Assembly: GCA_046484625.1 (NCBI GenBank)
Contig: JAWOIO010000109.1
Span: 1,842 to 65,841 of the forward strand
Origin: Acidimicrobiia bacterium
GTDB lineage: Bacteria; Actinomycetota; Acidimicrobiia; IMCC26256; PALSA-555
Reading direction: 5' to 3'
Length of the DNA stretch: 64,000 nucleotides
Shown: one piece after another, positions 608-47,600 of the stretch
How positions within the stretch are numbered: position 1 is the first letter of the stretch
Layout of the letters: every line of letters begins with the position of its first letter
Notes under the pieces: model-generated
Told to the model about the DNA's origin: nothing
Database searches by the model: none
Seen by the model: only the letters and a program-made list of their open reading frames with translations
Position numbers and translations under genes: made by a program

Positions 608-664
608 TCGCGCCGTACCATGCGAGGCCCCGGTGCCCCGGGGCCCCGACCGAAGAGGAGCAAC

Positions 665-1231
665 ATGGCCGTCGACCTTCCCGAGGTGCACGCAGCTGCA
701 CTCGACCACACCCGCCGAGCCGTCGCCGGCATCGGCGACGAGCAGTGGCACCTCGACACGCCGTGTGCGGAATGGGATGTCCTGGCGCTGCTCCAGCACG
801 TGGTGAGTGGCAACCTCTGGGTCCCCGAGCTCACGGCCGGGCGCACGATCGAGGAGGTCGGCGACGCGCTCGACGGCGACGTCCTCGGCAACGACCCGCT
901 CGCCGCGTACGACGCGTCCGCCGCCGGCGCGGCCGCCGCCTTCCGGGCCGATGGCGCGATGGACGCACCGGTCGCGGTGTCGTACGGGCCGGTCCCCGGG
1001 TCGGTCTACTGCGGGCATCGCTTCATCGACGTCCTCATCCACGGGTGGGACCTCGCCTACGCGACCCGCCAGGACACGAACCTCCCCGAGGAGCTGGTCG
1101 AGGCCTGCTGGGAGGTCGTCGAGCCCCAGCGCGAGCTGCTGCAGGGCAGCGGCATGTTCGGCGAGGTCCCGATCCCCGAGGGCGGCGATCGCCAGGCGAC
1201 CCTGCTCGCGGTCCTCGGCCGCAGCGAATGA
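665..1231 (+). CDS. DinB / mycothiol-dependent maleylpyruvate-isomerase-like family protein
   Basis: ORF 620..1231, with the likely start at the internal ATG at 665 (MAVDLPEV). The helical DinB-like N-terminal pattern and size were recognised by eye only. Confidence 0.55.
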   Translation: MAVDLPEVHAAALDHTRRAVAGIGDEQWHLDTPCAEWDVLALLQHVVSGNLWVPELTAGRTIEEVGDALDGDVLGNDPLAAYDASAAGAAAAFRADGAMDAPVAVSYGPVPGSVYCGHRFIDVLIHGWDLAYATRQDTNLPEELVEACWEVVEPQRELLQGSGMFGEVPIPEGGDRQATLLAVLGRSE

Positions 1232-1250
1232 CGCAATAGGCTCGCTCGCC

Positions 1251-1616
1251 ATGGGTCAGGAGATCACCGTCACCTCGCGTCCGGGAGCGTCCCCGGCGAT
1301 CCGGATGTTCGCGTGCAACCGCTCTCTCACCGGGATGGCGATCGAGTCCTACGCCTCGATCGCCGACGCCGGCGGCAGCCGGGCGCCCGACGTGCTCGCG
1401 AAGCGGCTCTTCGACCTCGGTGCGACGCGGGTCACCGTGTACTCGAGCGACGTGACGGTCGAGGCACCCGAGTCGGCGTGGGCCGCGCTCGAGCCGAAGG
1501 TGGAGGAGACCATCCACCGCCTCTTCGGCTTCTACGGCGACGACGCCGGCTGGTCCGACGACAACCTGCGGGCGATGGGCGTGGAGCCCCTCCCGCGCCC
1601 GGAGCCGTCGGCCTAG
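1251..1616 (+). CDS. Hypothetical protein, NifU-N-terminal-like small alpha/beta protein
   Basis: ATG at 1251 inside long ORF 807..1616. High GC3. Similarity to Nfu/NifU N-terminal domain proteins is weak and judged by eye. Confidence 0.45.
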   Translation: MGQEITVTSRPGASPAIRMFACNRSLTGMAIESYASIADAGGSRAPDVLAKRLFDLGATRVTVYSSDVTVEAPESAWAALEPKVEETIHRLFGFYGDDAGWSDDNLRAMGVEPLPRPEPSA

Positions 1617-1640
1617 CGAGGACCCGCGATCCCGTCTTGC

Positions 1641-1662
1641 GTACCGAACATATGTTCGGTAC
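1641..1662 (+). promoter_or_regulatory. LexA-type SOS box (CGAAC-N4-GTTCG) upstream of imuA'
   Basis: Perfect 22-bp palindrome gtaccgaacat|atgttcggtac; core CGAACATATGTTCG at 1645..1658. It sits just upstream of the RBS ggagagg and the GTG at 1672, and matches the actinobacterial/Gram-positive LexA operator consensus. Confidence 0.75.
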
Positions 1663-1671
1663 AACGGAGAG

Positions 1672-2373
1672 GTGACCGCAGCACTTCCCCAGTCCGGTCA
1701 GCCCCAGCCCGGTCAGGCGCGGCGTGACCCCGAGGCCCGGGCCCGGTTGCGGGCGGTGGCCGAGCAGGCCCGCCCACTGACCCTCGCCCGGAGCCGCACG
1801 TTCCCCGTCCCCGGTCCGCTGGGCGAGCTCCTCCCCGGAGGGGGGCTGCGGCGGGGCGCCGTGGTCGGGGTCGGCGGCACACCGGGCGCCGGGGCCACCT
1901 CGGTGGCGTTCGCGCTCGCCGCCGCGGCGACGACCGCAGGGGAGTGGGCGGCGGCGATCGACCTCACCGGCACGTTGGGGGCCGAGGCCGCGGCGGCCGC
2001 GGGGGTCGCGCTCGAACGGTTCCCGGTGGTGCGCCTGGCCCACGGTCCCGCGTCGCGCTGGGCCACGGTGGTGGCCGCACTCCTCGACGGCGTGGGTCTC
2101 GTGCTCGCCGAGGTCCCGCCGCACGCGCGCGCGGGCGACGCCCGCCGGCTCGTGGCGCGGGCGCGGGAACGGGGGAGCGTCCTCGTCGTGCTCGGGGACC
2201 GGTGGCCGGGGAGCACCGCGGTGACGCTCGTCGCCGAGGGTGGACCCTGGTCGGAGGCCGAGGGAGAGGAGGACCGGGTCGCGGTGCTCCCCGTCCGCAC
2301 GGTGCAGGTGCAGGTCGCGGGGCGGGGGGACGCGGCCCGGGTGCGCCACGGTGCGCTCGCGGCCGGTGCCTGA
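1672..2373 (+). CDS. imuA': ImuA' (RecA-fold mutasome accessory protein)
   Basis: 233-aa ORF. Shows the LPGGGLRRGAVV..G, ..VVAALLDGV.. and ARERGSVLVVLG pattern typical of ImuA'. Supported by the upstream SOS box and an 8-nt overlap with imuB. Confidence 0.8.
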   Translation: MTAALPQSGQPQPGQARRDPEARARLRAVAEQARPLTLARSRTFPVPGPLGELLPGGGLRRGAVVGVGGTPGAGATSVAFALAAAATTAGEWAAAIDLTGTLGAEAAAAAGVALERFPVVRLAHGPASRWATVVAALLDGVGLVLAEVPPHARAGDARRLVARARERGSVLVVLGDRWPGSTAVTLVAEGGPWSEAEGEEDRVAVLPVRTVQVQVAGRGDAARVRHGALAAGA

Positions 2374-4018
2374 GCGCACACTCGCGCTGTGGTGCCCGGC
2401 GTGGTCGGTCACCACCGCCCGTCGGGAGGACCCCGCGCTGGTGGGGGCGCCGGTCGCGGTGGTCGAGCGCGGCGCACGGGGGCAGCTCGTGCGCGCGGTG
2501 TCGGCCGAGGCGCGCGACGAGAGCGTGACCGTCGGGCTGCGCCGGCGCGAGGCCGAGGCGCGCTGTGCCGGCTTGGTGGTCGTCGACCGCGACCCGGCCG
2601 CGGAGGCGCGGGCGTTCGAGGTCGTCGCGCGCGCGACCGAGCCGATCACTCCCGCGGTGGTCCTCGAACGACCGGGCGTGCTCACGTTCCCCACCCGAGG
2701 CCCGTCGCGCTACTTCGGTGGCGACGACGCGCTGGCGACGCGCGTGCTCGCCATTGTCACGGAGGCGGGGGTGGACGACGCGCGCGTCGGCATCGCCGAC
2801 GGCGGCTTCGCGTCCCGGCTCGCGACCCGGCGTGCGGCGCGCGACCAGAGTGCGGGGACGCTCGTCGTTCCCGCCGGCGGCTCGGCCGAGTTCCTCGCGC
2901 CGTGGCCGGTCGCGGTGCTGCGCGGTGTGCTCGGGACCGAGACCGAGGGGGACGCGTTCGTGAGCCTGCTCGTGCGGCTCGGGCTGCGCACGCTCGGCGA
3001 CTTCGCCGCGCTCCCCGCACCGTCGGTCCTCGCGCGCTTCGGGGCCGGCGGTGCACGCGCGCATCGCCTCGCGTGCGGGCTCGAGGAGCACGCCGCGCCC
3101 CCGATGCCACCCCCGCCCGAGCTGGCCGAGACCTGCGAGCTCGACCCGCCCGCGACGCGCGTCGACGAGGTCGCCTTCGCGGCCAAGGGGCTCGCCGACC
3201 GGCTCTTCGACCGGCTCGAGCTGCTGGGCCTCTCCTGCTCGCAGGTGGTGGTGGAGGCCGAGACCGAGCACGGCGAGCGCCACGCCCGCTGCTGGCGGCA
3301 CGAGGGCGGGCTCACCGCGGCATCGCTCGTCACCCGGGTCCGCTGGCAGCTCGACGCGTGGCTCACCGGCAGGTCCCCGGAGGGGCCCCAGGGAGAAGCG
3401 GAGGTAGAGGAGGCGACCGCGGGGCTCACCTTCCTGCGGATCGCCCCCGACCGGGTGGTGCCGGCGACCGGTCGACAGCTCGGACTGTGGGGTGGCGACG
3501 CGGCGAGCGCCGACCGGGCCGAGCGGGTGCTCGCCCGGATCCAGGGGATGCTCGGTCACGAGGCGGTGGCGACCGCGGTGGTGGTCGGTGGCCGGGCGCC
3601 GGTCGAGCGCATCCGATGGGTCCCGTGGGGCGAGCCTCGTGACGCGCCGGGCGCGTCGGGCGCCGACGCCGCGCCCTGGCCCGGTGCCGTCCCCGGGCCG
3701 CCCCCGGCGCGGGTGCACCCCGAGCCGGTGCCCGCCGAGCTGCTCGACGCCGACGGTGCCGACGTGCGGGTCTCGGGCCGAGGGGAGGCGACCGCGGAGC
3801 CCGCGTGGCTGCGCTGCGCGCTCCTGCCCGGAGGTGGCGGTCGGGTGCTCATGAGCACCGGGCCCTGGGCCCACGACCTGCGCTGGTGGGACCGGCTCAC
3901 CTGCCGGCGCCGGGTGCTCTGGCACGTGGTGGTGGCAACGCCCGACGAGTCCGGCCCGGTCGCATGCCTGGCCTCGTTGGAGGGCGGTCGGGCCGCCGTC
4001 GAGGCCGTCTACGACTGA
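2366..4018 (+). CDS. imuB: ImuB (Y-family polymerase-like mutasome subunit)
   Basis: GTG at 2366 in the frame of ORF 2240..4018. N-terminus reads TLALWCPAWSV...AVV....V.AVSAEAR..GV..GLRRREAEARC, typical of ImuB. Follows imuA'. Confidence 0.85.
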   Translation: MPERTLALWCPAWSVTTARREDPALVGAPVAVVERGARGQLVRAVSAEARDESVTVGLRRREAEARCAGLVVVDRDPAAEARAFEVVARATEPITPAVVLERPGVLTFPTRGPSRYFGGDDALATRVLAIVTEAGVDDARVGIADGGFASRLATRRAARDQSAGTLVVPAGGSAEFLAPWPVAVLRGVLGTETEGDAFVSLLVRLGLRTLGDFAALPAPSVLARFGAGGARAHRLACGLEEHAAPPMPPPPELAETCELDPPATRVDEVAFAAKGLADRLFDRLELLGLSCSQVVVEAETEHGERHARCWRHEGGLTAASLVTRVRWQLDAWLTGRSPEGPQGEAEVEEATAGLTFLRIAPDRVVPATGRQLGLWGGDAASADRAERVLARIQGMLGHEAVATAVVVGGRAPVERIRWVPWGEPRDAPGASGADAAPWPGAVPGPPPARVHPEPVPAELLDADGADVRVSGRGEATAEPAWLRCALLPGGGGRVLMSTGPWAHDLRWWDRLTCRRRVLWHVVVATPDESGPVACLASLEGGRAAVEAVYD

Positions 4019-4075
4019 ACGCGCCGTGACGCGCGGCACGACGCACCGGGCTCCGAACGCGTCGATACTGGTGAG

Positions 4076-4771
4076 ATGTCGAAGCCTGCACCGGTCGTAG
4101 TCGATGCCGACGCTCCGCTGCGCGTCTCCTCGCGGTCGGGGTCGGTCACGATCACGGCCGAGGACCGGCCCGACGTGCTCGTCGAGCGCGGTCCCGATGC
4201 CGTCGCATCACGCGACGGGGGGATCGAGATCAAGGGGAAGTCCGGTTCGGTGTCCGTGCGCTGCCCGAGCGGGTGCGACGTCGTCGTCGGGACCGGGTCC
4301 GGGTCGGTCACGCTCCATGGCGTCCTCGGCGACACCCGCGTGACCACCGGCAGTGGGAGTGTCACCGTCGAGCGCGCCGAGCGCATCGACGCCCGGACCG
4401 GCTCGGGCAGCGTGTCGATCGACGAGTGCGACGGCGACTGCCGCGCCCAGACCGGGAACGGCACGGTCCGGGTGGGCCGGGCCGCGTCGGTCGAGCTGTC
4501 GACAGGTTCGGGATCGATCGATGCCGACGAGGTCGGCGCGGCGCGCGTCCGCGTGGGGAGCGGCTCGGTCTCCGTCGGTCTGCGCGACGGTGGCGAGGCC
4601 GCGGTGGACACCGGGTCTGGCAATGTCACCGTGGTGGTGGCCGCAGGATGTTGCCCGACCACCGAGCTGCACACGAAGCGCGGCACCGTGCAGTGCGACT
4701 GCGCCCCGGGGACCGACGGTGCCATCCGCGTGCGCACGGGGAGCGGCAACATCACGGTCGAGGAGCGGTGA
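4076..4771 (+). CDS. DUF4097-like beta-helix repeat protein (putative adhesin fold), apparently cytoplasmic
   Basis: 231-aa ORF with about 10 iterations of (T/S)GSGSV(T/S)(V/I) spaced about 17-20 aa apart. No signal peptide or TM segment. Cys-rich C-terminal region (CCPTT..QCDC). Confidence 0.7.
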   Translation: MSKPAPVVVDADAPLRVSSRSGSVTITAEDRPDVLVERGPDAVASRDGGIEIKGKSGSVSVRCPSGCDVVVGTGSGSVTLHGVLGDTRVTTGSGSVTVERAERIDARTGSGSVSIDECDGDCRAQTGNGTVRVGRAASVELSTGSGSIDADEVGAARVRVGSGSVSVGLRDGGEAAVDTGSGNVTVVVAAGCCPTTELHTKRGTVQCDCAPGTDGAIRVRTGSGNITVEER

Positions 4772-5295
4772 GCGGCGCTGTCGCTCCGGGCGCCATCGTC
4801 TTCACCGACATCGTCGGCTTCACCGAGTTCACTGCGCAGCAGGGCGACACGGAGGCCCTGGCGATGCTCGACCGCCAGGATCGGCTCGTCCGTTCGGCGC
4901 TCCCCGATCGCGCCCGCATCGTCAAGGAGCTCGGCGACGGCCTCCTGCTCTGGTTCCCGGAGGCGGGCCCGGCGCTCGCGGTGTGTCTGGGCCTCCTCGA
5001 CTGCTTCGTCGACGTTCCCGCCGACACCCCGCCGCTCTGGGTGCGGATGGGGATGCACTGGGGCTGTCCGACGCCGCGCGGTGACGACCTCGTCGGGCAC
5101 GCGGTGAACCTCACCGCTCGCATCGTCGACGTCGCCGGGCCGGGCGAGCTCCTGGTCTCGGAGGAGGCCCGCGTCGCGGCCGACTCCGGCGGCGACGCAG
5201 TCGCGTTCGACGAGCTGGGGCCGGTCGTGATGCGCGGGATCCCCGATCCCGTGCCGCTCTACCGCGCGTCGCGGATGGTGCCGTCCAACACCTGA
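4768..5295 (+). CDS. Stand-alone class III adenylate cyclase catalytic domain
   Basis: GTG at 4768 overlaps the upstream stop (GTGA). Motifs present: FTDIVGFTEF, KELGDGLLLWF, MGMHWG, D-LVGHAVNLTARI. These cover the metal-binding Asp residues, the Lys/Asp specificity pair and the Asn/Arg pair. Confidence 0.75.
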   Translation: MSGAVAPGAIVFTDIVGFTEFTAQQGDTEALAMLDRQDRLVRSALPDRARIVKELGDGLLLWFPEAGPALAVCLGLLDCFVDVPADTPPLWVRMGMHWGCPTPRGDDLVGHAVNLTARIVDVAGPGELLVSEEARVAADSGGDAVAFDELGPVVMRGIPDPVPLYRASRMVPSNT

Positions 5296-5302
5296 CGCCC
5301 GG

Positions 5303-6367
5303 CTATCCGACCAAGCGGTAGAAGCGCCAGAAGTCGTGCTCGATCGGGAGCACCTCGACCTCGGCGTACCCGGCTTCGTGCGCGTAGCGCCGGAACGTGG
5401 GGGCGCGCATGATCGTGCCGGTGCCGGCGGCCGGGGGATCGGTCATTGCGCACGGCAGGCAATGGACGGCGCTGAAGCCCCATTGGAACCGCTCCATGTC
5501 GTCGACATCGAGGGTGAACTCGTCGGCGACCCGCTCGTCGGCGACCACGACCGCACCGCCGTCGGCACGCAGCGTGCGCATCGCGCGGAGCGCACCCACG
5601 GGGTCGCACATGTCGTGGATGGTCTCGAACGCGCACACGAGGTCGAAGGAGTCGGCAAGTCCCGGATCGGCCGCATCCCGTGCCTCGAAGGTCACGCGAT
5701 CCGCGACACCACGCGCCGCGGCGTTCTCCCGGGCAGTCTCGATCGATGCGTCGTCGAGGTCGAGGCCGACGACCCGGGCGTTGGGGTAGGCCTCGGCGAT
5801 CGCGATCGTCGACCATCCCGATCCGCATCCGACGTCGGCGACACGTGCGGGCGGATCGGCGCGGAGCCGGTCGTCGACATCGGTGATCGAGGGGAACCAG
5901 TCGGTCCCCAGCTGGTTCAGGAACATCGGCCGGTTCAGGAGCGCGATCGCCTCGCGGATGTCGGCACCGTAGGACTCGTACGGGACCCCGCCACCGGTGC
6001 GAAACGCGTCCAAGACCTCCGGCATCGCCTTCGCGATCCCCATGAGGGCGCGGCCTGCAGGCGCGAAGTAGGCGAGGCTCGTGTCGTCGAGCAGGACCTC
6101 GGCGTGCCCGTCGGGGAGGACGAACCGGCCGTCGTCGCCGAGCTCCAGAAAGCCGGCGACGGCCTGCTGTTGCAGCCACTCCCGCGCGTAGCGCTCGTGG
6201 ATCCCGGCCGCGCTCGCCAGGCCTGCCGGATCGAGCGGGCCGTCGTCGGCGAGCGCCCGATACAGGCCGAGCCGGTCACCGAGGTAGACGTTGGCGAACC
6301 TCCGTGCTCGTGCTGCCCGGACGGGATCATACGAGGCCGAGGCCCGAGCACGCACGAGCCGAGGCAT
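5303..6367 (-). CDS. Class I SAM-dependent methyltransferase with N-terminal winged-helix-like domain
   Basis: Distal 355 codons of ORF 5303..7504, starting MPRLVRA. SAM motif VADVGCGSGWSTIAIAE and GLDLD. Confidence 0.8.
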   Translation of the reverse strand: MPRLVRARASASYDPVRAARARRFANVYLGDRLGLYRALADDGPLDPAGLASAAGIHERYAREWLQQQAVAGFLELGDDGRFVLPDGHAEVLLDDTSLAYFAPAGRALMGIAKAMPEVLDAFRTGGGVPYESYGADIREAIALLNRPMFLNQLGTDWFPSITDVDDRLRADPPARVADVGCGSGWSTIAIAEAYPNARVVGLDLDDASIETARENAAARGVADRVTFEARDAADPGLADSFDLVCAFETIHDMCDPVGALRAMRTLRADGGAVVVADERVADEFTLDVDDMERFQWGFSAVHCLPCAMTDPPAAGTGTIMRAPTFRRYAHEAGYAEVEVLPIEHDFWRFYRLVG

Positions 6368-6403
6368 ACTGTCGGCCGCAGCGTCGTTGAGAAAGGTCCT
6401 GGT

Positions 6404-7873
6404 GTGCGTGCAGTTCGAACCATCGGCGCAATGCTCGTCGTCGGCGTCCTCGGGGTGAGCGGTCCGGTGGCCGGGGCCACCGCCGAGCCGGCCGTCGCGC
6501 CGATCACGGGTGGCACCGGCGAGCCGAGCCTGGTCACCACGAGCTTCGACCTGGCCGCGCTGGGCTACGAGAAGGCCGAGTACTTCCTCGAAGGGGACGC
6601 CGCCGCGTACGCGTCCGACACCCCGCTCACCGCAGACGGCCAATGGGAGGTCCAGCCCCTCGACGAGACCGCTCCGTACAACACCCGGATCCTCGTCTAC
6701 CGGCCGATCGACGCCGCCGACTTCAGCGGCACCGTCTTCGTCGAGTGGCTCAACGTCTCGGCCGGCTTCGACACCAGCCCCGACTGGAACCTCGCGCACA
6801 ACCAGATCCTCCGCAGCGGCGCGGTGTGGGTGGGGGTCTCGGCGCAGGCGGTCGGCGTGGTCGGTGGCGGCCAGGCCGTCGCAGGTCTGCAGTCGGGCGG
6901 ACTCAAGGGCGGCGACCCGGCGCGGTACGGAACCCTGGAGCACCCCGGCGACAGCTACTCCTACGACATCTTCTCCCAGGCCGGGACCGCCGTGCGGGGG
7001 ACCGCACCCGACGACCCCCTCGGCGGCCTGAAGGCGAAGCACGTCATCGCGATCGGTGAGTCGCAGTCGGCGTTCCGCATGGTCACCTACGTGAACGCGG
7101 TCCACCCGGTGGCGGAGGTCTACGACGGCTTCCTCGTGCACAGCCGTGGCTCCAACAGTGCCGCGCTGCTCGAGCGGCCGTTCCCGGGCATCTCCGCGCC
7201 CGACCGGACCCGGATCCGCCCCGACCTCGACGTGCCCGTGCTGACCTTCCAGACCGAGACCGACCTCGGCTTCGGGCACTTCCCGCCCCGCCAGGCCGAC
7301 AGCTCGACGTTCCGGCTCTGGGAGGTCGCGGGGACCTCCCACGCCGACGCGTACACGGCCCAGATCGGCTTCGGCGACGCCGGGGACGGCGCGGCCGAGG
7401 TCACCCTCCTCGACGTCGCCAACGCCGGTGGCGGTCCGTTGAACTGTGCGGTGCCCATGAACTACGGACCGCAGTACGCGGTGCTCCAGGCCGCGCTGGC
7501 GCACCTCGAGGCGTGGGTCGTCGACGGTGTGGCTCCGCCGAGGGCACCACGACTGCGCCTCGAGCCCGGCCTCCCTGCGGTCATCGAGCGCGATCGCAAT
7601 GGCAACGCACGGGGTGGGATCCGCACGCCGCTCGTCGACGCCCCGAACGCGACGTTGCGCGGTGACGGGAACGACGGCGGGAGGTTCTGCCAGCTCTTCG
7701 GCACGACGGTGCCGCTCGCGCCGACGACGATCGCGGCGCTCTACTCGTCACACGATGACTACGTGGCGAAGTTCACCGAAGCGACCGCGGCCGCCGTGAA
7801 GGCGGGCTTCCTGCTGGAGCCGGAGGCCGACAACCTGAACGCCGCGGCCGAGGCGTCGACCGTCGGGGGCTGA
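6404..7873 (+). CDS. Secreted alpha/beta-hydrolase-fold protein (function unknown)
   Basis: GTG at 6404 follows the RBS gaaagg, inside ORF 5336..7873. Signal peptide-like N-terminus (..LVVGVLGVSGPVAGATA|EP). GESQSA nucleophile-elbow-like motif. Confidence 0.6.
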   Translation: MRAVRTIGAMLVVGVLGVSGPVAGATAEPAVAPITGGTGEPSLVTTSFDLAALGYEKAEYFLEGDAAAYASDTPLTADGQWEVQPLDETAPYNTRILVYRPIDAADFSGTVFVEWLNVSAGFDTSPDWNLAHNQILRSGAVWVGVSAQAVGVVGGGQAVAGLQSGGLKGGDPARYGTLEHPGDSYSYDIFSQAGTAVRGTAPDDPLGGLKAKHVIAIGESQSAFRMVTYVNAVHPVAEVYDGFLVHSRGSNSAALLERPFPGISAPDRTRIRPDLDVPVLTFQTETDLGFGHFPPRQADSSTFRLWEVAGTSHADAYTAQIGFGDAGDGAAEVTLLDVANAGGGPLNCAVPMNYGPQYAVLQAALAHLEAWVVDGVAPPRAPRLRLEPGLPAVIERDRNGNARGGIRTPLVDAPNATLRGDGNDGGRFCQLFGTTVPLAPTTIAALYSSHDDYVAKFTEATAAAVKAGFLLEPEADNLNAAAEASTVGG

Positions 7874-7891
7874 GGCCCGCCCGAACCCGGG

Positions 7892-9496
7892 TCAGGCGAG
7901 GGCGACGAGGTCGAGCAGGTCGTCGGACCAGTAGTCGAGGTCACCCTCGGGCATCAGCAGCACCCGGTCGGGCGCGAGCCGCTCGACGAACCCCGCGTCG
8001 TGGCTCACCAGCACGATGGTCCCGGGCCAGGTCGCGAGCGCGGCACCGATCGCGTCGCGCGACGGCGGGTCGAGGTTGTTCGTCGGCTCGTCGAGCAGGA
8101 GCAGGTTGTGCTTGCCCGCGACGAGCTGCGCGAGCGCGAGCTTGGTCTTCTCGCCACCCGACAGCGTGCCTGCGTCCTGGTGCGCGATCTCGCCGCGAAG
8201 TCCGAACATGCCGAGCAGGTTCCGCTGCTCCTGGTTCGTCATCGACCCGTGGTCGGCGAAGTGCGACAGCACGGTCTTGCCGGCCGCGATGCCCTCGTGC
8301 TCCTGGGCGTAGTAGCCCGCCGAGACGTTGTGCCCGAGCTTCACGGATCCCGAGTCGGCCTCGGTGCGCTCGGCGAGGATGCGCATCAACGACGTCTTCC
8401 CTGCGCCGTTGAGCCCCATGATGAGCAGTCGCTCGTCGCGGCCGACATCGAAGGTGACGTCGGCGAACACTGGCGGCCCCCCGTAGCCCTTCTTCAGCCC
8501 CTCGACCGTCAGCACTGTGGAGCCTGGCCGCGGAGGCGCGGGGAAGCGCACGTTGATCGCCGCCTCCTTCTTCGGGCCGGTCTTGGCGTCGCGCCGCATG
8601 CGTGCGATGCGCGTGTCGAGTGCCTTGGCCTGCTTCGCGCGCTTCTCGGTCTGGCCGCGCATCGTGTCGGCCAGCGTCTTGATGCGCTTGATCTCGGACT
8701 GCTCGTGGGCGACGGTGCGGGCCAGCCGCACCTCGTCGGCCGCGCGCTGCTCGAGGTACTGCGAGTACGTGCCGCGGTACTCGGTCATCTGCGCGGCGTC
8801 GAGGTGCAAGATGCGGGTGATGGCCTCGTCGAGGAGCTGGAGGTCGTGGCTCACGACGAGGAGCGCGCCACGGTACGAGCGCAGGAAGCCGAGCAACCAC
8901 TCCTTGGCATCGGTGTCGAGGTGGTTGGTCGGCTCGTCGAGCAGGAGCAGCTCGCTCCCCGCGAACAGGATGCGCGACAGCTCGACGCGGCGACGCTCCC
9001 CGCCCGAGAGCGCGGAGAGGGGGAGGTCGAGCCGGTCGTCGGGGAGGCCGAGGCCGTGGGCGATCGTACGGGCCTCGGCGTCGGCGCCGTAGCCCCCTGC
9101 GCTTCGGTAGTTCTCCTCGGCCCGGGCGAAGCGGGCGACGTTGCGGTCGGTGGGGTCCTCGTCGACGCGGGCCCGCAGGATCTCGATCCGCTCGGCGGCG
9201 GTGTCGAGTCCCCGGCCCGAGAGGACGTGGGCCAGCGCGGTGATCTCGGTGGAGCGGGAACGGGGCTTGGGGTCCTGGGGGAGATAGCCCAGCTCGTCGG
9301 AGCGCAGGACCGTGCCCCCGGCGGACGGCGCCTCACCGGCGAGCACCTTGAGCAGGCTCGTCTTCCCCGTGCCGTTGCGGCCGACGAGGCCGACGGTGTC
9401 ACCGGCGCGCAGCGAGAACGAGGCGTCCGCCAACGTCTGGCGGCCACCGACCTCGACCGAGAGGGAACGGACCTGGAGCACCCTCCATGATCCCAC
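7892..9496 (-). CDS. ABC-F family ATPase (two ABC domains, no TM domain)
   Basis: 534-aa ORF. Two Walker A motifs (GRNGTGKT, GLNGAGKT), two LSGGE signatures, and an Arg/Lys-rich inter-domain linker. Exact start is uncertain (GTG at 9496 or GTG at 9481). Confidence 0.85.
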   Translation of the reverse strand: MGSWRVLQVRSLSVEVGGRQTLADASFSLRAGDTVGLVGRNGTGKTSLLKVLAGEAPSAGGTVLRSDELGYLPQDPKPRSRSTEITALAHVLSGRGLDTAAERIEILRARVDEDPTDRNVARFARAEENYRSAGGYGADAEARTIAHGLGLPDDRLDLPLSALSGGERRRVELSRILFAGSELLLLDEPTNHLDTDAKEWLLGFLRSYRGALLVVSHDLQLLDEAITRILHLDAAQMTEYRGTYSQYLEQRAADEVRLARTVAHEQSEIKRIKTLADTMRGQTEKRAKQAKALDTRIARMRRDAKTGPKKEAAINVRFPAPPRPGSTVLTVEGLKKGYGGPPVFADVTFDVGRDERLLIMGLNGAGKTSLMRILAERTEADSGSVKLGHNVSAGYYAQEHEGIAAGKTVLSHFADHGSMTNQEQRNLLGMFGLRGEIAHQDAGTLSGGEKTKLALAQLVAGKHNLLLLDEPTNNLDPPSRDAIGAALATWPGTIVLVSHDAGFVERLAPDRVLLMPEGDLDYWSDDLLDLVALA

Positions 9497-9510
9497 GCGG
9501 GCCTGCGGGT

Positions 9511-9668
9511 TCCCGCACCGCTTTCCGTGACGGATCGCGCCCGCGCACCGGTTCTGGTGACGGATCGCGCCCGCGCACCGGTTCTGGTGACGGATCGCGC
9601 CGTCACGGGGGCCGGATCCGACACGAGAAGGGTGGGGAGGGCCGGATCCGTCACGAGAAGGGAGCGGC
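9511..9668. repeat. Composite tandem-repeat block: about 3.5 copies of one 30-bp unit followed by 2 copies of a second 30-bp unit with inverted complementarity
   Basis: gtgacggatcgcgcccgcgcaccggttctg is identical at 9527..9556 and 9557..9586; a partial third copy starts at 9587 and a degenerate copy lies at 9497..9526. gggccggatccg(a/t)cacgagaaggg occurs at 9609 and 9639. gtgacggatc and gatccgtcac are reverse complements. Confidence 0.85.
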
Positions 9669-9683
9669 GAAGCAGTGCTCAGA

Positions 9684-10112
9684 TCAGCGGAGCTCGCAGA
9701 TCTCGTACGTGAGGATGGTGTTGTCCTCCGAGAGCGTCCCCTTGGCCACCGCCTGGATCGCGTTCAGCCAGGTGTAGCGCTCGTCGCCGGTCTCGTAGAG
9801 CGGCGCGGCGTAGATCGGCTTGACGCCCGGGCCCTCGGAGAAGTCGGTCCGGCCGTGGTACCAGGAGTAGACGAGGGCGCCGTCGTGGGTCTCGAAGAGG
9901 GCGCGCACATCGAGCGTGCCGACCCCCTCGGCGCTCAGGGTCATCCAGTCGGCGGCGGCGACGCCCTTCAAGCTGCCCCGCAACCGATCGCCCTCGTACG
10001 CACCCTCGCGGACCTCGGCGATGATCCGGGTCCCCGACGGGGTGGACGGGAGGACGAATGGCTCGGCCAGCGTGATGCGGGCGGTGGCGAGGGGGACGAG
10101 CTCGATGGTCAT
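9684..10112 (-). CDS. DUF3237-like beta-barrel protein
   Basis: Internal ATG (MTIELVPL) of ORF 9684..10256. The G.R...EV.EG..EG..L.G.....AADWM....EGVG.LDVR pattern resembles DUF3237. Confidence 0.6.
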   Translation of the reverse strand: MTIELVPLATARITLAEPFVLPSTPSGTRIIAEVREGAYEGDRLRGSLKGVAAADWMTLSAEGVGTLDVRALFETHDGALVYSWYHGRTDFSEGPGVKPIYAAPLYETGDERYTWLNAIQAVAKGTLSEDNTILTYEICELR

Positions 10113-10182
10113 GGTGGCATCCTGCCAGAGCGTGCCCGGCCGGGCGACCAGATCGCGCGCAGCCGGACGATAGGTTCGCGCC

Positions 10183-10641
10183 ATGCTGCAGACAGGTGAC
10201 CTGGTCGACGACTTCGAGCTCCCCGACCAGACGGGCGCGGTGCGGCGGCTCAGCACGATGCTTGCCGACGGGCCGGTGGTGCTGTTCTTCTACCCCGCGG
10301 CGATGACCAAGGGCTGCACGATGGAGAGCTGCCACTTCCGGGACCTCGCGGCGGAGTTCGCCGCGGCGGGCGCGCAGCGCGTCGGCATCAGCGGCGACAC
10401 CGTCGACACGCAGAAGGAGTTCTCCGACGCCCACGAGTTCGACTACCCGCTGCTCGCGGACACCGAGGGCACCGTCGCCGAGCTCTTCGGCGTGAAGCGC
10501 TCGTTCGGGATCTCGCCGTTGAAGCGGGCCACGTTCGTGATCGACCGGGACCGGACGGTCCTCGCCGCGATCAAGAGCGAGATCCGCATGAACGTCCACG
10601 CCGACAAGGCGCTCGAGGTGCTGCGAGCCGCGGCCGCCTGA
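10183..10641 (+). CDS. bcp: Thiol peroxidase / peroxiredoxin Bcp
   Basis: 152-aa ORF with the FFYPAAMTKGCTMESCHFRD motif (peroxidatic Cys in T-x-x-C). Size and layout are typical of Bcp. Confidence 0.85.
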   Translation: MLQTGDLVDDFELPDQTGAVRRLSTMLADGPVVLFFYPAAMTKGCTMESCHFRDLAAEFAAAGAQRVGISGDTVDTQKEFSDAHEFDYPLLADTEGTVAELFGVKRSFGISPLKRATFVIDRDRTVLAAIKSEIRMNVHADKALEVLRAAAA

Positions 10642-10669
10642 GCCTCGGTTCGGACCGGGCTTGCCGTAG

Positions 10670-10683
10670 CGAACATACGTTCG
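10670..10683 (+). promoter_or_regulatory. LexA-type SOS box upstream of dnaE2
   Basis: CGAACATACGTTCG lies 37 nt upstream of the dnaE2 ATG. It has the same core as the box at 1645..1658. Confidence 0.75.
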
Positions 10684-10720
10684 ATACGGTGCTCTCCCCG
10701 AGCGGAGTGGGCCAGGCGCC

Positions 10721-13700
10721 ATGTACGCGGAGCTGCACTGCCACACGAACTTCTCGTTCCTCGACGGGGCGAGCCACCCCGAGGAGCTGGTCGACGAGGC
10801 CGTGCGGCTCGGGCTCGCCGGCCTGGCCGTCACCGACCACGACGGCTGCTACGGGGTGGTGCGCTTCGCCGAGGCCGCCCGCACCGCAGCTCTGCCCACG
10901 GTGTTCGGCGCCGAGCTCACACTCGAGCGGCGTGCCGGAGCAGCGAGCACCGGAGCAGCGAGCGTCCCGGAGGCCGATCCACCTGGCGAGCATCTCGTGG
11001 TGCTCGCCGACGGAGTGGAGGGGTACGCCCGACTCGCACGCGCGGTGAGTGCCGCGCAGATGGCAGGGGAGAAGGGGGCGCCGCGCTTCACGCTCGCGGG
11101 GCTCGCCGAGGGTGCCCGCGCCGGAGTGCACGTCAACGGGAACCGGGCCAGCGTCACGAACGACTCGTGGTTCGTGCTCACGGGGTGTCGCAAGGGCGCG
11201 GTACCGAGCGCGCTCATGGCCGACGGGCCCGCCGCGGCCCGCCACGCCCTCGACCGCCTGGTCGCGGCGTTCGGGCGCGAACGGGTGCTGGTGGAGCTGT
11301 GGGACCACGGCGACCCGCTCGACCGGCATCGCAACGACGCGCTCGCCCGGGTCGCCGTGCACGCGGGCGTGGAGGTCGTCGCCACCAACAACGTGCACTA
11401 CGCGACCTCGAAGCAGCGCCCGCTCGCCACCGCGCTCGCCGCGGTGCGGGCCCGGCGCTCGCTCGACGAGCTCGACGGGTGGCTCCCCGCCGCGGGGTTC
11501 GCGCACCTGCGCTCGCCGGGGGAGCAGGCCCGACGCTTCGCGCGCTGGCCCGGCGCGGTGCAGCGTTCGGTGGAGGTCGCGCAGGAGTGCGCGTTCGACC
11601 TCCGGCTCGCCGCTCCCGAGCTCCCCGACCTCGAGGTGCCGGAGGGGCACACCGACATGTCGTGGCTGCGTGAGCTCACCAGACGCGGCGCCGAGGTGCG
11701 CTACCCGCGCTCGCACCCGCAGCACGAGCAGGCGCAACGGCAGATGGCCTATGAGCTCGACGTGATCGAGCAGCTGAACTTCCCCGGCTACTTCCTCGTC
11801 CTCGTCGACATCGTCGACTTCTGCCGTCGCTCCGACATCTACTGCCAGGGACGGGGGAGCGCCGCCAACAGCGCGGTCTGCTACGCGCTCGGCGTCACCA
11901 AGGCCGACGCGGTCGCGCTCGGGCTGCTGTTCGAGCGCTTCCTCTCGCCCGAGCGCGACGGCCCACCCGACATCGACCTCGACATCGAGCACGAACGCCG
12001 CGAGGAGGTCATCCAACACGTCTACGAGAAGTACGGGCGCGACCGCGCCGCGCAGGTCGCGAACGTCATCACCTACCGGCCCCGCTCCGCGATGCGCGAG
12101 ATGGCCAAGGTCGCCGGGCTCTCGCCCGGGCAGGCCGACGCGCTCAGCAAGCGCATTGACGGCTGGGCCGGTCGGGGTGGGGACGGGGGCGCGTCGGCTC
12201 TCCAGGGGGTACGTGACTCCGGCACCGCCCTCCCCGACCTCGTGCTCGACCTCGCCACCCAGGTGCTCGACTACCCCCGCCACCTCGGGATCCACTCCGG
12301 CGGCATGGTGATGGCCGACCGGCCACTGGTGGAGTTCTGCCCGGTGGAGTGGGCCCGCATGGAGGACCGGTCGGTGCTCCAGTGGGACAAGGACGACTGC
12401 GCGGCTGCGGGGCTCGTGAAGTTCGACCTGCTCGGCCTCGGGATGCTCACGATGCTGCACCTCGCCGTCGACCTGGTGCGCGAGCACGAGGGCATCGACC
12501 TCGACCTTGCCACCATCCCCCAGGAGGACGAGGTCTACGACCTGCTCTGCGCGGCCGACACGATCGGCGTGTTCCAGGTGGAGAGCCGGGCCCAGATGGC
12601 CACGTTGCCCCGCCTGCGGCCCCGCACCTTCTACGACCTGGTGATCGAGGTCGCGCTCATCCGACCCGGCCCGATCCAGGGCGGCTCCGTGCACCCGTAC
12701 CTGCGCCGGCGCGCCGGCGAGGAGCCCGTCACCTACCCGCACCCGGTGCTGGAGCCCTGCCTGCGCAAGACCCTCGGCGTGCCGCTGTTCCAGGAGCAGC
12801 TCATGCAGATCGCGATCGACGCGGCCGGGTTCACGCCCGGCGAGGCCGACCGGCTGCGTCAGGCGATGGGCTCGAAGCGGTCGAAGGCGCGCATGGCCGC
12901 GATGCGGGAGCGGCTCATGGTCGGGATGGCCGAGCGGGGAATTGTCGGCGACACCGCCGAGGAGATCGCCACCAAGCTCGAGGCGTTCGCGCACTTCGGC
13001 TTCCCCGAGAGCCACTCGGTGAGCTTCGCCTACCTCGTGTACTCGAGCGCGTGGGTGAAGTACCACCACCCCGACGCGTTCGCGTGCGCGCTGCTCAACG
13101 CGCAGCCGATGGGCTTCTACTCGCCGCACACGATCACCCGAGACGCGATCCGCCACGGGGTCGAGGTGCTCGGCCCGTGCGTGCAGGCATCGCGCCGCGA
13201 GTGCACGCTCGAGCCGCGCTCACGCGACGCCGGTCCCATCGGCGTGCCTCAGCCCGGCTGGCACGCCGCACCGTCCACCCGTGCCATGCGCGTCGGCCTG
13301 CGCTACGTGCGCGGGCTGTCGAGCGCGCTGCTCGACCGCATCGACGCGACCCGTGAGGCGGACGGCAGGTTCGTGGACCTGGAGGACTTCACCCGGCGCA
13401 CGCACGCACCGGTCGACGCGCTGGAGGCGCTCGCCACCGCGGGCGCGTTCGCGTGCTTCGGCGTCGGTCGACGGGACGCGCTCTGGGCCGCGGGCGCGCT
13501 GGGCGAGGTACGGCCCGGTCGCCTCCCCGGCGTGGTCACCGGCGTCGAGGCACCCCGCCTCCCCGGCATGGATCCCATCGAGGAGACCGCCGCCGACCTC
13601 TGGTCCACCGGGCTGTCGGCCGGCGCGCACCCCACCGAGTTCGCCCGGGAGCGGCTCGCTGCCCGCGGTGCGGTCACCGCGGCGGGGCTGCGGGACCTCC

Positions 13701-13987
13701 CGCACCGCACGGTCGTGGAGGTGGGTGGGGTGGTCACGCACCGCCAGCAGCCCGAGACCGCGCACGGCGTGGTGTTCCTCAACCTCGAGGACGAGACGGG
13801 GTTGGTGAACGTGATCTGCACGCCCGACGTGTGGAGGCGGTTCCGGAGGGTCGCCCGCGAGTCGCCGGCCCTGTGCGTGCGCGGGCTCCTCGAACGCCAC
13901 CAGGGCGTCATCAACCTCATCGCCCGCCGCATCGAGCCGCTCGACCTGCGCCCGGCCTCGCTGCTGCGTTCCCGCGACTTCCGCTAG
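10721..13987 (+). CDS. dnaE2: Error-prone DNA polymerase III alpha-like subunit DnaE2
   Basis: 1088-aa ORF. PHP domain start MYAELHCHTNFSFLDGAS, polymerase core motifs, length typical of DnaE2, SOS box upstream, and imuA'B nearby. Confidence 0.9.
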   Translation: MYAELHCHTNFSFLDGASHPEELVDEAVRLGLAGLAVTDHDGCYGVVRFAEAARTAALPTVFGAELTLERRAGAASTGAASVPEADPPGEHLVVLADGVEGYARLARAVSAAQMAGEKGAPRFTLAGLAEGARAGVHVNGNRASVTNDSWFVLTGCRKGAVPSALMADGPAAARHALDRLVAAFGRERVLVELWDHGDPLDRHRNDALARVAVHAGVEVVATNNVHYATSKQRPLATALAAVRARRSLDELDGWLPAAGFAHLRSPGEQARRFARWPGAVQRSVEVAQECAFDLRLAAPELPDLEVPEGHTDMSWLRELTRRGAEVRYPRSHPQHEQAQRQMAYELDVIEQLNFPGYFLVLVDIVDFCRRSDIYCQGRGSAANSAVCYALGVTKADAVALGLLFERFLSPERDGPPDIDLDIEHERREEVIQHVYEKYGRDRAAQVANVITYRPRSAMREMAKVAGLSPGQADALSKRIDGWAGRGGDGGASALQGVRDSGTALPDLVLDLATQVLDYPRHLGIHSGGMVMADRPLVEFCPVEWARMEDRSVLQWDKDDCAAAGLVKFDLLGLGMLTMLHLAVDLVREHEGIDLDLATIPQEDEVYDLLCAADTIGVFQVESRAQMATLPRLRPRTFYDLVIEVALIRPGPIQGGSVHPYLRRRAGEEPVTYPHPVLEPCLRKTLGVPLFQEQLMQIAIDAAGFTPGEADRLRQAMGSKRSKARMAAMRERLMVGMAERGIVGDTAEEIATKLEAFAHFGFPESHSVSFAYLVYSSAWVKYHHPDAFACALLNAQPMGFYSPHTITRDAIRHGVEVLGPCVQASRRECTLEPRSRDAGPIGVPQPGWHAAPSTRAMRVGLRYVRGLSSALLDRIDATREADGRFVDLEDFTRRTHAPVDALEALATAGAFACFGVGRRDALWAAGALGEVRPGRLPGVVTGVEAPRLPGMDPIEETAADLWSTGLSAGAHPTEFARERLAARGAVTAAGLRDLPHRTVVEVGGVVTHRQQPETAHGVVFLNLEDETGLVNVICTPDVWRRFRRVARESPALCVRGLLERHQGVINLIARRIEPLDLRPASLLRSRDFR
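10935..10964. repeat. 15-bp tandem duplication inside dnaE2
   Basis: ccggagcagcgagca / ccggagcagcgagcg; encodes AGAAS-TGAAS within the PHP-domain region. Confidence 0.8.
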
Positions 13988-36108: not shown

Positions 36109-37119
36109 ATGAAGGTCGAAGGTGGCATCCCGACGACGGGGATCGAGGAGATCGCGGCCGCGGCCCGGAACCTCGAGGAGGTGGGCTACGACGGCGGGAT
36201 CACCGCCGAGATGAGCCACGACCCCTTCCTCCCGCTGGTGATCGCCGCGGAGCACACCGAGACGCTCGAGCTCGGCACCGGGATCGCGGTCGCGTTCGCC
36301 CGCAACCCGATGACGCTGGCGAACATCGGCTACGACCTCCAGGTCTTCAGCAAGGGTCGGTTCACCCTGGGCCTCGGGAGCCAGATCAAGCCGCACATCG
36401 AGAAGCGCTTCTCGATGCCGTGGTCGCACCCCGCGGCGCGCATGCGCGAGCTGATCCTCGCGATGCGGGCGATCTGGGCGTGCTGGAACGACGGCACACC
36501 GCTCGACTTCCGGGGCGAGTTCTACCGCCACACCCTGATGACGCCGTTCTTCGTGCCCGGCCCGAACCCCTACGGCGACCCCCGCATCTCGCTCGCGGCC
36601 GTCGGTGAGCGCATGACGGAGGTCGCGGGCGAGGTCGCCGACGGCGTGATCCTCCACGCGTTCACCACCCGCCGCTATGTGGAGGAGGTCACCCTCCCGG
36701 CGCTGCAACGCGGCTTCGAGCGCTCGGGTCGCAGCCGCGACGACTTTGAGATCTCGGGCCCGCTGTTCATCGTGGCGGGCAACAACGAGGAGGAGTTCGT
36801 GAAGGCCAGAGCCGGGACGAAGCAGCAGATCGCGTTCTACGGCTCGACTCCGGCGTACCGGGGCGTGCTCGAGCTGCACGGGTGGGGCGACCTGCAGACC
36901 GAGCTCAACCGTCTGTCGAAGCAGGGGGAGTGGGTCGCGATGGGCGAGCTCATCACCGACGACATCCTCGAGGAGTTCGCCGTCGTCGCCGAGCCCGAGG
37001 CGGTGCCCGTCGCCATGCTCGCCCGCTACGGGGGCATCGTCGACCGGCTCGCCTTCTACGCCCCATACGAGAGCGACCCCGAGCGATGGAAGCAGGTGCT
37101 CGCCGGGTTCAAGGCGTGA
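36109..37119 (+). CDS. LLM-class F420-dependent oxidoreductase
   Basis: 336-aa ORF. Luciferase-like TIM-barrel pattern resembling F420-dependent LLM proteins; recognised by eye. Confidence 0.75.
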   Translation: MKVEGGIPTTGIEEIAAAARNLEEVGYDGGITAEMSHDPFLPLVIAAEHTETLELGTGIAVAFARNPMTLANIGYDLQVFSKGRFTLGLGSQIKPHIEKRFSMPWSHPAARMRELILAMRAIWACWNDGTPLDFRGEFYRHTLMTPFFVPGPNPYGDPRISLAAVGERMTEVAGEVADGVILHAFTTRRYVEEVTLPALQRGFERSGRSRDDFEISGPLFIVAGNNEEEFVKARAGTKQQIAFYGSTPAYRGVLELHGWGDLQTELNRLSKQGEWVAMGELITDDILEEFAVVAEPEAVPVAMLARYGGIVDRLAFYAPYESDPERWKQVLAGFKA

Positions 37120-46433: not shown

Positions 46434-47090
46434 ATGGGCCTCGAGATCCGCGACCTGGCCGCCGAGGACCTCCCTGCGGCCGGAGGCGTCGCGGGGCGAG
46501 CGCTCGCGGACAGCCCGACGCTGCGGTGGGCGCTCGGCCCGGACCCGCTCGCGCGGGTCGGCGGCAGCCTCGACGTCTTCGTCGGGTTCGTGGCCGCGAT
46601 GCCACCACCGCAGCTGGGCGCCTTCCTCGGGAACCACGTCGTCGGGGTCGCAGCGGCGGCGGCGCCCGGAACCTGCATCGGCGCGATCGCGACCGACGAG
46701 ATGCGGACGCCGCCGCAGGTGATCGGACCGAACGGCGACGAGTCGCGGAACCTCCTCGTGTGGTCGCTGTTCTGCGGGCACGACCTCGAGGAGCGGCACT
46801 GGCACGTCGGCCCCGTCTCGGTCGAGCCGGGCCTCCAGGGCGCGGGAATCGGCGGACAGCTCCTCACGGCGCTGTGCGACCGGATGGACGCCGACGGCGA
46901 GGTGGCGTGGCTCGAGACGGACAAGCCCGAGAACGTCGTGTTCTATCGGCGGCACGGCTTCGAGGTCGTCCAGGAGGTGCTCGCGCCCGATCCGGCGGTG
47001 TATCAGGCGTCCGGCGATCAGGCTTCCGGCGATCAGGCGTCCGGCGACGGGCCGTTCACGACCTGGTTCATGCGGCGGGATCCCCGGTAG
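46434..47090 (+). CDS. GNAT family N-acetyltransferase
   Basis: 218-aa ORF. Motifs [12 protein letters not shown] and FYRRHGFE. Has a (QASGD)x3 insert near the C-terminus. Confidence 0.7.
47004..47048. repeat. 15-bp tandem repeat x3 inside the GNAT gene
   Basis: caggcgtccggcgat / caggcttccggcgat / caggcgtccggcgac. Confidence 0.9.
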
Positions 47091-47502
47091 CGCTGGCGCG
47101 CGCGGCGTCCCACATCGATCGCCAGCTCCCGCCGGCGACGAGCACGTGGTCGAAGAGCAGGACGTGCTGCTCGAGACACGCTCGCGCCAGCGCGAGGAAG
47201 CCCTCGACGTCGGCCTCGATCGCGAGCTCGCGCTCGTCGAACAGGAACGAGACCAACACCACGGAGACCGCGTCGAGCTCCCGGGCCAGATCGACGAGCT
47301 GCCCGGCGTCGACCGGTCGGTCGCCCGCGTCGGGTCGGAGCGCGAGCCCGGTGAGCCGACGGTCGTGGTCGAGGCAGATCACCACTTCTCCGGGCGGTGG
47401 GAGCTGGTCGTCGAGCACGGCCTGGACGAGCGTGACGACGTCGCTCGGGCGCCGGAGCTGCTTCGGGACGGTCGTGCGGGTGCAGTCGCGAGAGGTCGTC
47501 AT
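47068..47502 (-). CDS. RadC/JAB-like protein lacking the metalloprotease motif (tentative)
   Basis: ATG at 47502 after the RBS gaggag. The C-terminal ..LLFDHVLVAGGSWRSM resembles the RadC C-terminus, but no HxHPxG-type motif is visible. Confidence 0.45.
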   Translation of the reverse strand: MTTSRDCTRTTVPKQLRRPSDVVTLVQAVLDDQLPPPGEVVICLDHDRRLTGLALRPDAGDRPVDAGQLVDLARELDAVSVVLVSFLFDERELAIEADVEGFLALARACLEQHVLLFDHVLVAGGSWRSMWDAARASATGDPAA

Positions 47503-47600
47503 CGTGGGCTCCTCGGGAGTCGCAAGGAACGAACAGGTGTTCGATCCGGTGCGCACCAGACCCGGTGACGCGTCCGCGTGACGGAGCCGGCCCCGTCTCG

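Follow-up and report, generated by a model that had tools for sequence, protein, structure and literature searches.

Class III adenylate cyclases that consist of a catalytic domain only are a known kind of enzyme. The closest described example is Ma1120, of the Rv1120c type (4wp9, 4wp8, 5d0e), with about 175 amino acids, and in the published work on Ma1120 such minimal cyclases are reportedly active alone. Toastrack proteins (DUF4097) have been described as LiaG/YvlB and in the Psp/Lia envelope-stress systems. The fold has been proposed to be an intracellular protein-docking platform for signalling complexes, and the broad survey in which this is proposed never mentions cyclases (PMC11237479). 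In mycobacteria, the SOS mutasome (Rv3395c-Rv3394c and Rv3370c) is formed by overlapping, co-directional imuA' and imuB genes, with a CGAAC-N4-GTTCG box over the imuA' promoter, and by a separate dnaE2 gene with its own LexA box. Here, we analyse a stretch of 64,000 nucleotides (nt) from an Acidimicrobiia bacterium (contig JAWOIO010000109.1, hereafter the window) in which the genes of a toastrack and a minimal cyclase overlap and follow imuB on the same strand. An earlier reading of the letters alone, hereafter the sequence-only reading, saw in this arrangement a DNA-damage-inducible module that produces cyclic AMP (cAMP) and is appended to the mutasome operon. From the comparison of related loci, we consider it likely that two independent units stand head to tail, an SOS mutasome and a self-contained toastrack-cyclase bicistron with its own promoter.

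The bicistron and its promoter region contain the following features:

4026..4039, no strand: Crp-type palindrome, GTGACGCGCGGCAC, with one mismatch (GCAC) to GTGA-N6-TCAC, 8 nt after the imuB stop
4064..4069, plus strand: -10-like hexamer GATACT, 24 nt after the palindrome and 6 nt before the toastrack ATG
4076..4771, plus strand: toastrack (DUF4097) gene, 231 amino acids, a soluble beta-helix protein; PF13349, 30.6 bits against a cut-off of 22.9
4768..5295, plus strand: class III adenylate cyclase gene, 175 amino acids, catalytic domain only; PF00211 (Guanylate_cyc), 31 bits against a cut-off of 21.9

To the class III cyclases the window protein belongs by its PF00211 match and by all six canonical residues: D14 and D57 for metal binding, K53 and D107 for adenine specificity, and N114 and R118 for the transition state. 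These six residues are invariant among 25 homologues and align to those of Ma1120. Ma1120 (4wp9) is also the closest solved structure, with an E-value of 3e-14 over residues 9-163, followed by the cyclase domains of Rv1900c and Rv1264. The two proteins agree in length, in having nothing but the catalytic domain, and in the alignment of all metal-binding, substrate-specifying and transition-state residues. A database protein search gives 1771 matches to this family, single-domain proteins of about 170-180 amino acids. The lipase/cyclase LipJ is a different protein (NF058673, 71.4 bits against a cut-off of 800), as only the cyclase domain of that model (297-447) is matched. As a homodimer, the window cyclase would be predicted to make cAMP. 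What may distinguish it from Ma1120 is its surroundings: the cyclases of the window family always come directly after a toastrack gene, typically overlapping it, and in many species they stand behind a Crp-type box. In two loci, a second gene with a cyclase domain, 27-36% identical, lies a few kb from the pair (L009, 5239-5712, minus strand; L066, 13149-13625, minus strand); in L009 it is the divergent upstream neighbour of the pair.

The toastrack is assigned to DUF4097 by a PF13349 score above the gathering score and by the right-handed beta-helix fold of its model. Structure prediction was done on database homologues of the locus proteins. The AlphaFold2 model of the toastrack has a predicted local distance difference test score (pLDDT) of 93, and Foldseek relates it with a probability of 1.00 to 3LYC, 4QRK, 3PET and 4OPW, structural-genomics toastracks deposited as "putative adhesin"; 4QRK and 4OPW are among the examples cited by the Toastrack survey (PMC11237479). 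The protein contains no transmembrane segment (maximum 19-residue hydropathy 1.2). Five cysteines are conserved in the family: C63, C118 and C122 in 72 of 77 sequences, C209 in 55 and C207 in 52. In the profile search, the LiaG equivalog NF049997 scores 34.4 bits, far under its cut-off of 285. In contrast to the LiaG/YvlB and Psp/Lia toastracks, the window protein lacks a membrane anchor, genes of its type have no PspC, LiaF or two-component genes as neighbours, and proteins of its type carry the five conserved cysteines and have a cyclase as partner.

Across species, the two genes stay together. A scan with a cyclase alignment over one genome per species (GTDB representatives) gave 80 loci, from Acidimicrobiia and from Chloroflexota/Dehalococcoidia. 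A toastrack gene lies directly upstream of the cyclase in all testable species loci (79/79); L038 was left out of this test, as the locus begins at a contig edge. The stop and start codons of the pair overlap in 72 of the 82 loci analysed, with a stop/start offset of -4 in 44 loci, -1 in 18 and -10 in 9. In the window the overlap is GTGA at 4768-4771, in which the toastrack stop overlaps the GTG start of the cyclase. The genes around the pair, for which at least 2.5 kb upstream of the toastrack was present in 64 of 78 analysed genome loci, change from locus to locus. Upstream we find members of the beta-lactamase family (19 loci), UvrD-like helicases (13), IMS proteins (2), a DEAD/CSD helicase (1) and also radical SAM, thioesterase and other genes, and in 29 of 81 loci the upstream gene is divergent from the pair. 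The genes downstream are equally variable. The first neighbourhoods of cyclase relatives gave the same picture, with an overlapping toastrack always directly upstream and a varied gene before it: imuA'-imuB in L001 (87% cyclase identity), a DEAD/CSD helicase in L002 (74%) and a divergent CoA-transferase in L004 (69%). Constant adjacency of two genes amid changing neighbours is a pattern typical of the subunits of one complex. Because the genes are adjacent in every testable locus, overlap in most, and all other neighbours change, the toastrack is very probably the partner of the cyclase.

The DNA before the toastrack start codon was aligned across all loci. The common layout is GTGA-N6-TCAC, 23-25 nt (mostly 24), a hexamer of the form xAxxxT and, after a further 6 nt, the start codon. 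Of about 35 Acidimicrobiia loci with at least 63% cyclase identity, 31 have this layout, whatever the upstream gene; in that count 23 of the palindromes are perfect and the rest have one mismatch. The hexamer has an A at position 2 and a T at position 6, reads CATGAT in most loci and GATACT in the window, L001 and L008, and has identical spacing in at least 23 related loci. In eight Chloroflexota loci the same box is followed, after 22-24 nt, by TATACT, TACAAT or TATAAT and by a longer leader with a Shine-Dalgarno site. The window spacings match the layout exactly. In the spacer alignment, invariance is confined to the half-sites, the hexamer and the ATG, and this holds behind imuB, behind beta-lactamase-family genes and where the upstream gene is divergent. 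In most loci there is no Shine-Dalgarno site in the 6 nt before the toastrack start. In actinobacteria, a -10 hexamer ending 6 nt ahead of the start codon is the arrangement that goes with leaderless mRNAs. The 57-nt spacer between the imuB stop at 4018 and the toastrack ATG at 4076 appears to contain a promoter that belongs to the pair itself, with this ATG as a leaderless start.

The sequence features listed by the sequence-only reading are all present at the positions it gave. The catalytic contexts of the cyclase, the GTGA overlap and the DUF4097 beta-helix identity of the upstream protein are as it described them, and the two profile searches that it had proposed, with DUF4097 and with Guanylate_cyc, both give scores above the cut-off. 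Its suggestion that the beta-helix protein is the partner or regulator of the cyclase is strengthened by the constant pairing and the overlaps. It had also named GATACT, as a caveat, as a possible independent -10 element of a near-leaderless transcript; this caveat is supported, as the hexamer stands in the same position as in the 31 loci of the common layout, at the fixed 24 nt from a palindrome.

A thirteen-locus clade (L052, L067, L068, L070, L072, L075-L079, L081, L083 and L085) has a different arrangement. There, a co-directional gene for a UvrD-like superfamily 1 (SF1) helicase of about 670 amino acids or more ends 9-29 nt before the pair, and a -10-like TAGGCT, which contains the TAG stop of the helicase, is located 7-8 nt before the toastrack start. 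Upstream of the toastrack neither a Crp-type nor a LexA box is visible in this clade. Taken together, the UvrD, imuB and DEAD/CSD cases give a faint, unproven theme of nucleic-acid enzymes adjoining the pair.

The palindrome in the spacer fits the consensus GTG(N)6GNCAC obtained by DNase footprinting for S. coelicolor Crp (PMC3520106) fully. It also belongs to the general TGTGA-N6-TCACA class, and this fit at a conserved promoter position makes the promoter of the pair a candidate Crp-regulated promoter. Perfect boxes are found 25 times at the promoter of the pair, compared with densities per kb of 0.03 (coding DNA) and 0.056 (other intergenic DNA) over 956 kb, a 50- to 100-fold enrichment over the remaining locus DNA. 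With transcription starting at the toastrack ATG, the palindrome would be centred at about -43.5. cAMP-Crp would bind here and feed back on the operon. As the palindrome overlaps the -35 region of a promoter without a recognisable -35, class-II-type activation is favoured, and we take activation to be suggested and repression to be possible. A palindrome before a cAMP-making gene is shared with the cAMP-Crp systems of S. coelicolor (Crp), M. tuberculosis (Crp) and C. glutamicum (GlxR). The window differs from the known Crp regulons in that its putative site overlaps the -35 region of a leaderless promoter.

The spacer was also searched for other signals. It has no match to an RNA family in Rfam. 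A hidden LexA site was considered and rejected: there is a lone CGAAC half-site at 4052-4056, and no full box even when one mismatch is allowed. No GAAC-N4-GTTC box precedes the pair, or the co-directional gene upstream of it, in any other locus.

The mutasome and the gene that follows the pair comprise these features:

1641..1662, no strand: LexA (SOS) operator, a perfect 22-bp palindrome, GTACCGAACATATGTTCGGTAC, with the core CGAAC-N4-GTTCG
1672..2373, plus strand: imuA', RecA-fold mutasome accessory factor; NF058630, E-value 1.6e-28, 99.4 bits against a cut-off of 65
2366..4018, plus strand: imuB, Y-family-polymerase-like mutasome subunit; PF00817 (IMS), 39.8 bits against 23.2
5303..6400 (approximate start), minus strand: Rv2258c-like S-adenosylmethionine (SAM) methyltransferase, convergent and outside the unit; PF13847 and PF21320
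10670..10683, no strand: second perfect LexA box, CGAACATACGTTCG, 38 nt before dnaE2
10721..13987, plus strand: dnaE2, error-prone DNA polymerase, 1088 amino acids; NF004225, 1447.5 bits against a cut-off of 939

The mutasome of the window is complete and conventional, and this part of the locus, imuA'-imuB and dnaE2, is of a kind already known. The LexA core before imuA' (1645-1658) is perfect and overlaps the promoter of a known SOS gene, and the operator is flanked by a -35-like TTGCGT (1637-1642) and a -10-like TACAAC (1660-1665). In L001 the same box lies 26 nt before the imuA' start, and in L008 it is in the equivalent position. The stop of imuA' (2371-2373) and the GTG of imuB (2366) give an 8-nt overlap. 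ImuB is identified by its IMS score, which is above the Pfam gathering score, and by its place directly 3' of imuA'; among its metagenome relatives (n=80, 49-73% identity) imuA' is upstream in all loci where the upstream DNA is present. The third mutasome gene, dnaE2, is on the same strand, 6.7 kb downstream of imuB, and apart from this position there is no essential difference from the mycobacterial mutasome. The 22-bp palindrome, the overlap and the SOS-box-fronted imuA'-imuB unit had all been recognised by the sequence-only reading, to which the second box before dnaE2 can be added. The ribosome-binding site it placed before imuA' has to be revised: GGAGAGG abuts the GTG at 1672 with essentially zero spacing and is therefore unlikely to be a normal Shine-Dalgarno site. 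With TACAAC 6 nt before this GTG, imuA' may itself be leaderless.

Some further observations concern the SOS genes and boxes of the window. The promoter of dnaE2 has a similar order, with a -35-like TTGCCG, the LexA box, a -10-like TACGGT and a leader of about 24 nt. CGAAC-N4-GTTCG occurs in three perfect copies in the window, before imuA', at 10670-10683 and at 47530. The third, CGAACAGGTGTTCG at 47530-47543, is about 29 nt upstream of an open reading frame (ORF) of 144 amino acids (47071-47502, minus strand). This ORF has a weak, sub-threshold match to DUF4192 (19.8 against 27.8 bits) and may be an uncharacterised SOS gene. Perfect palindromes of 22 bp number two in the window, the operator at 1641-1662 and CATCGAGAAGCGCTTCTCGATG at 36396-36417. 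Upstream of imuA'-imuB, the window (620-1616) has an MDMPI_N-family gene and a 121-amino-acid ORF that weakly resembles Nfu_N (23.8 against 27 bits), and the same order is found in L088, L094-L096, L099, L105, L107, L115 and L120, all Acidimicrobiia.

The sequence-only reading had proposed a survey of the imuB-DUF4097-cyclase neighbourhood in related genomes. We find imuB upstream of the pair in three loci only, the window, L001 and L008, where the cyclases are 86-87% identical. In the genome survey imuA, imuB and dnaE2 are absent near the pair except in L008 (86%), even at E-values up to 1e-3. From the other side, a scan of metagenome contigs with ImuB gave the 80 loci mentioned above; in the 55 with at least 900 nt beyond imuB, neither a toastrack nor a cyclase is found beyond imuB (0/55). 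In 35 of these 55 loci dnaE2 is downstream of imuB, often contiguous with it. In the nearest ImuB relatives (L088 and L089, 72-73% identity) imuB is directly followed by a convergent ABC-F gene, and the same convergent ABC-F gene is found 3.9 kb further on in the window. Since imuB stands directly before ABC-F in these relatives, the pair has probably been inserted recently; the simplest reading is that the lineage of the window, L001 and L008 acquired the pair, the methyltransferase and a hydrolase together, by insertion between imuB and ABC-F. The pair has no conserved link to imuB or to LexA boxes across the loci compared, and the damage-to-cAMP link that had been proposed probably reflects chance gene order.

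The neighbour genes were called by a codon log-odds caller, and the methyltransferase region of the window was annotated from Pfam matches. The methyltransferase gene lies only 7 nt beyond the cyclase stop and ends the co-directional run, so that the sequence-only reading was right in having the run stop at 5295 before a convergent gene. A fixed context, in which imuA'-imuB would have replaced the DEAD/CSD helicase next to a shared MDMPI_N gene, was considered and rejected, because the L002 protein is not an orthologue of that of the window according to tblastn. The interval between imuB and dnaE2 looks like a recurrent or variable insertion zone. A contiguous imuA'-imuB-dnaE2 cassette is present in L097, L119, L142, L144, L147, L149, L151 and L156-L160; in other relatives, as in the window (4019-10720), imuB and dnaE2 are separated by 0.7-6.7 kb with unrelated genes. 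In L142, L144 and L166 the dnaE2 match is in two pieces about 220-260 nt apart, which could be an insertion or a frameshift.

The arrangement can be explained in other ways. The pair could have been captured by the imuA'-imuB operon in this lineage, with LexA derepression reading through the spacer and DNA damage raising cAMP. The genes are on the same strand with a gap of 57 nt, no terminator-like site or unusually stable fold is found in the spacer, the next gene is convergent just behind the cyclase, the window, L001 and L008 have all retained the arrangement, and elsewhere there is the weak theme of nucleic-acid enzymes upstream (UvrD-like in 13 loci, DEAD/CSD in L002). Against this, the adjacency is absent from all other loci of the pair and from every testable imuB locus, and the nearest imuB relatives lack the pair at this place, which indicates a recent insertion. 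Furthermore, even behind imuB the pair keeps its own box, -10 hexamer and leaderless layout under apparent selection, no LexA box precedes the pair or its upstream helicases anywhere else, and without a properly spaced Shine-Dalgarno site the ATG at 4076 would be an inefficient internal start. We regard capture as quite unlikely, and the damage-inducible module of the sequence-only reading is not supported: a lack of conserved adjacency in relatives, which it had itself named as refuting, is essentially what we find, and no LexA box accompanies the pair in other loci. A bolder combination, which we consider very unlikely, is that read-through adds a LexA input to a cAMP-Crp loop in the window, L001 and L008 and that, separately, the toastrack is an obligate cysteine-based (redox or metal) sensor subunit in about 80 species. 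If the former were true, DNA damage would raise cAMP and reprogramme the Crp regulon alongside the induction of the mutasome; if the latter were true, the pair would correspond to the sensor-cyclase fusions known elsewhere, divided over two polypeptides.

An autonomous pair whose palindrome is not a Crp site is also unlikely in our view. The palindrome would then serve a Rex-type repressor or a cAMP-independent member of the Crp/Fnr family, or form an RNA hairpin, either as the end of the upstream gene or within a 5' leader. Rex operators (TTGTGAA-N4-TTCACAA) share the GTGA-N6-TCAC core, the conserved toastrack cysteines would be in keeping with a redox theme, the window and the loci compared gave no crp gene, and the palindrome starts just 8 nt beyond the imuB stop. 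However, nearly all sites have C at position 5 and G at position 10 (GTGAC-N4-GTCAC), where Rex boxes have A and T, and the site fits a footprinted actinobacterial Crp consensus in an operon that makes the ligand of Crp. A protein site is favoured over an RNA stem because conservation extends to the half-site sequence itself and the single half-site substitutions of the window and L001 are uncompensated; the lack of an Rfam match and the 24-nt distance to the hexamer, fixed whether the upstream gene is co-directional or divergent, also speak against this alternative. Finally, toastrack and cyclase could be co-transcribed neighbours with unrelated functions, the cyclase acting alone like Ma1120. 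Minimal cyclases of this type are reportedly active alone, and no genuine fusion of the two domains was found. We consider this highly improbable, given that the pair is adjacent in all testable loci of two phyla, mostly with overlapping codons, as all other neighbours change.

Several points weigh against the reading as two independent units with a partnered, Crp-controlled cyclase. The evidence for an interaction between toastrack and cyclase is the pairing of their genes. A candidate Rosetta-stone fusion, P0154 (305 amino acids), was rejected as probably a deletion or an assembly chimera: it joins toastrack residues 1 to about 181 straight to the cyclase at "...ARVVKDLGDG" and lacks both the C-terminus of the toastrack and the FTDIVGFT of the cyclase, the first metal-binding motif. 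It is comparative spacing that predicts where transcription starts, that GATACT is used and that the mRNA is leaderless. Neither a consensus terminator nor a sigma-70 promoter is found in 1200-6000, and the spacer RNA is no more stable than its shuffles (z = +0.86), in agreement with the sequence-only reading, which had seen no hairpin terminator between 4018 and 4076. With no visible terminator separating imuB from the pair, SOS transcripts could physically read through, and the imuB-pair adjacency has persisted in three diverged genomes (cyclases 86-87% identical). Regarding Crp, boxes with one mismatch occur 10 times in the window compared with 4.7 expected, and the window box would not stand out without its relatives. 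A phmmer search with E. coli CRP as query found no crp gene in either the window or the 1.5 Mb of loci. Nor does Crp-type control extend to the whole family, as the UvrD clade has no recognisable box.

The two-unit reading, which we prefer, would work as follows. In the first unit, a LexA operator would control the imuA' promoter, imuA' and imuB would be translationally coupled, and dnaE2 would be expressed behind its own operator. The second unit would be a bicistron inserted between imuB and ABC-F in a narrow lineage of Acidimicrobiia, with a promoter in the spacer formed by the Crp-type palindrome at about -43.5, GATACT and the leaderless ATG. The stop/start coupling at GTGA would make the toastrack in a fixed ratio to the cyclase. 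The toastrack may dock on the cyclase or regulate it, supplying the sensor that the enzyme lacks, and its conserved cysteines may give a redox or metal response. An SOS input would reach the pair here only by unterminated read-through, with the toastrack then poorly translated; as its start lacks a properly spaced Shine-Dalgarno site, this contribution is probably small.

Full-text literature searches found no paper linking DUF4097/Toastrack to a cyclase. The combination of obligatory pairing, a soluble cysteine-bearing toastrack and a Crp-type box on a leaderless promoter appears to be new, as no description of it was found. Had the SOS mutasome been coupled to cAMP, DNA damage would have been tied to a second messenger in a new way; on the comparative evidence, such a coupling is unlikely to be an evolved feature. 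The pair is instead a compact and widespread module of Acidimicrobiia and Chloroflexota, poorly studied groups represented mostly by metagenome-assembled genomes, in which a cyclase with only a catalytic domain would always be made with a soluble toastrack, in many species behind a Crp-type operator. The orphan toastrack fold gains a concrete candidate biochemical partner outside the envelope-stress systems, and the module suggests that sensorless cyclases may be regulated in trans. The operator defined here may be a starting point for mapping the cAMP-Crp regulon in Acidimicrobiia and Chloroflexota.

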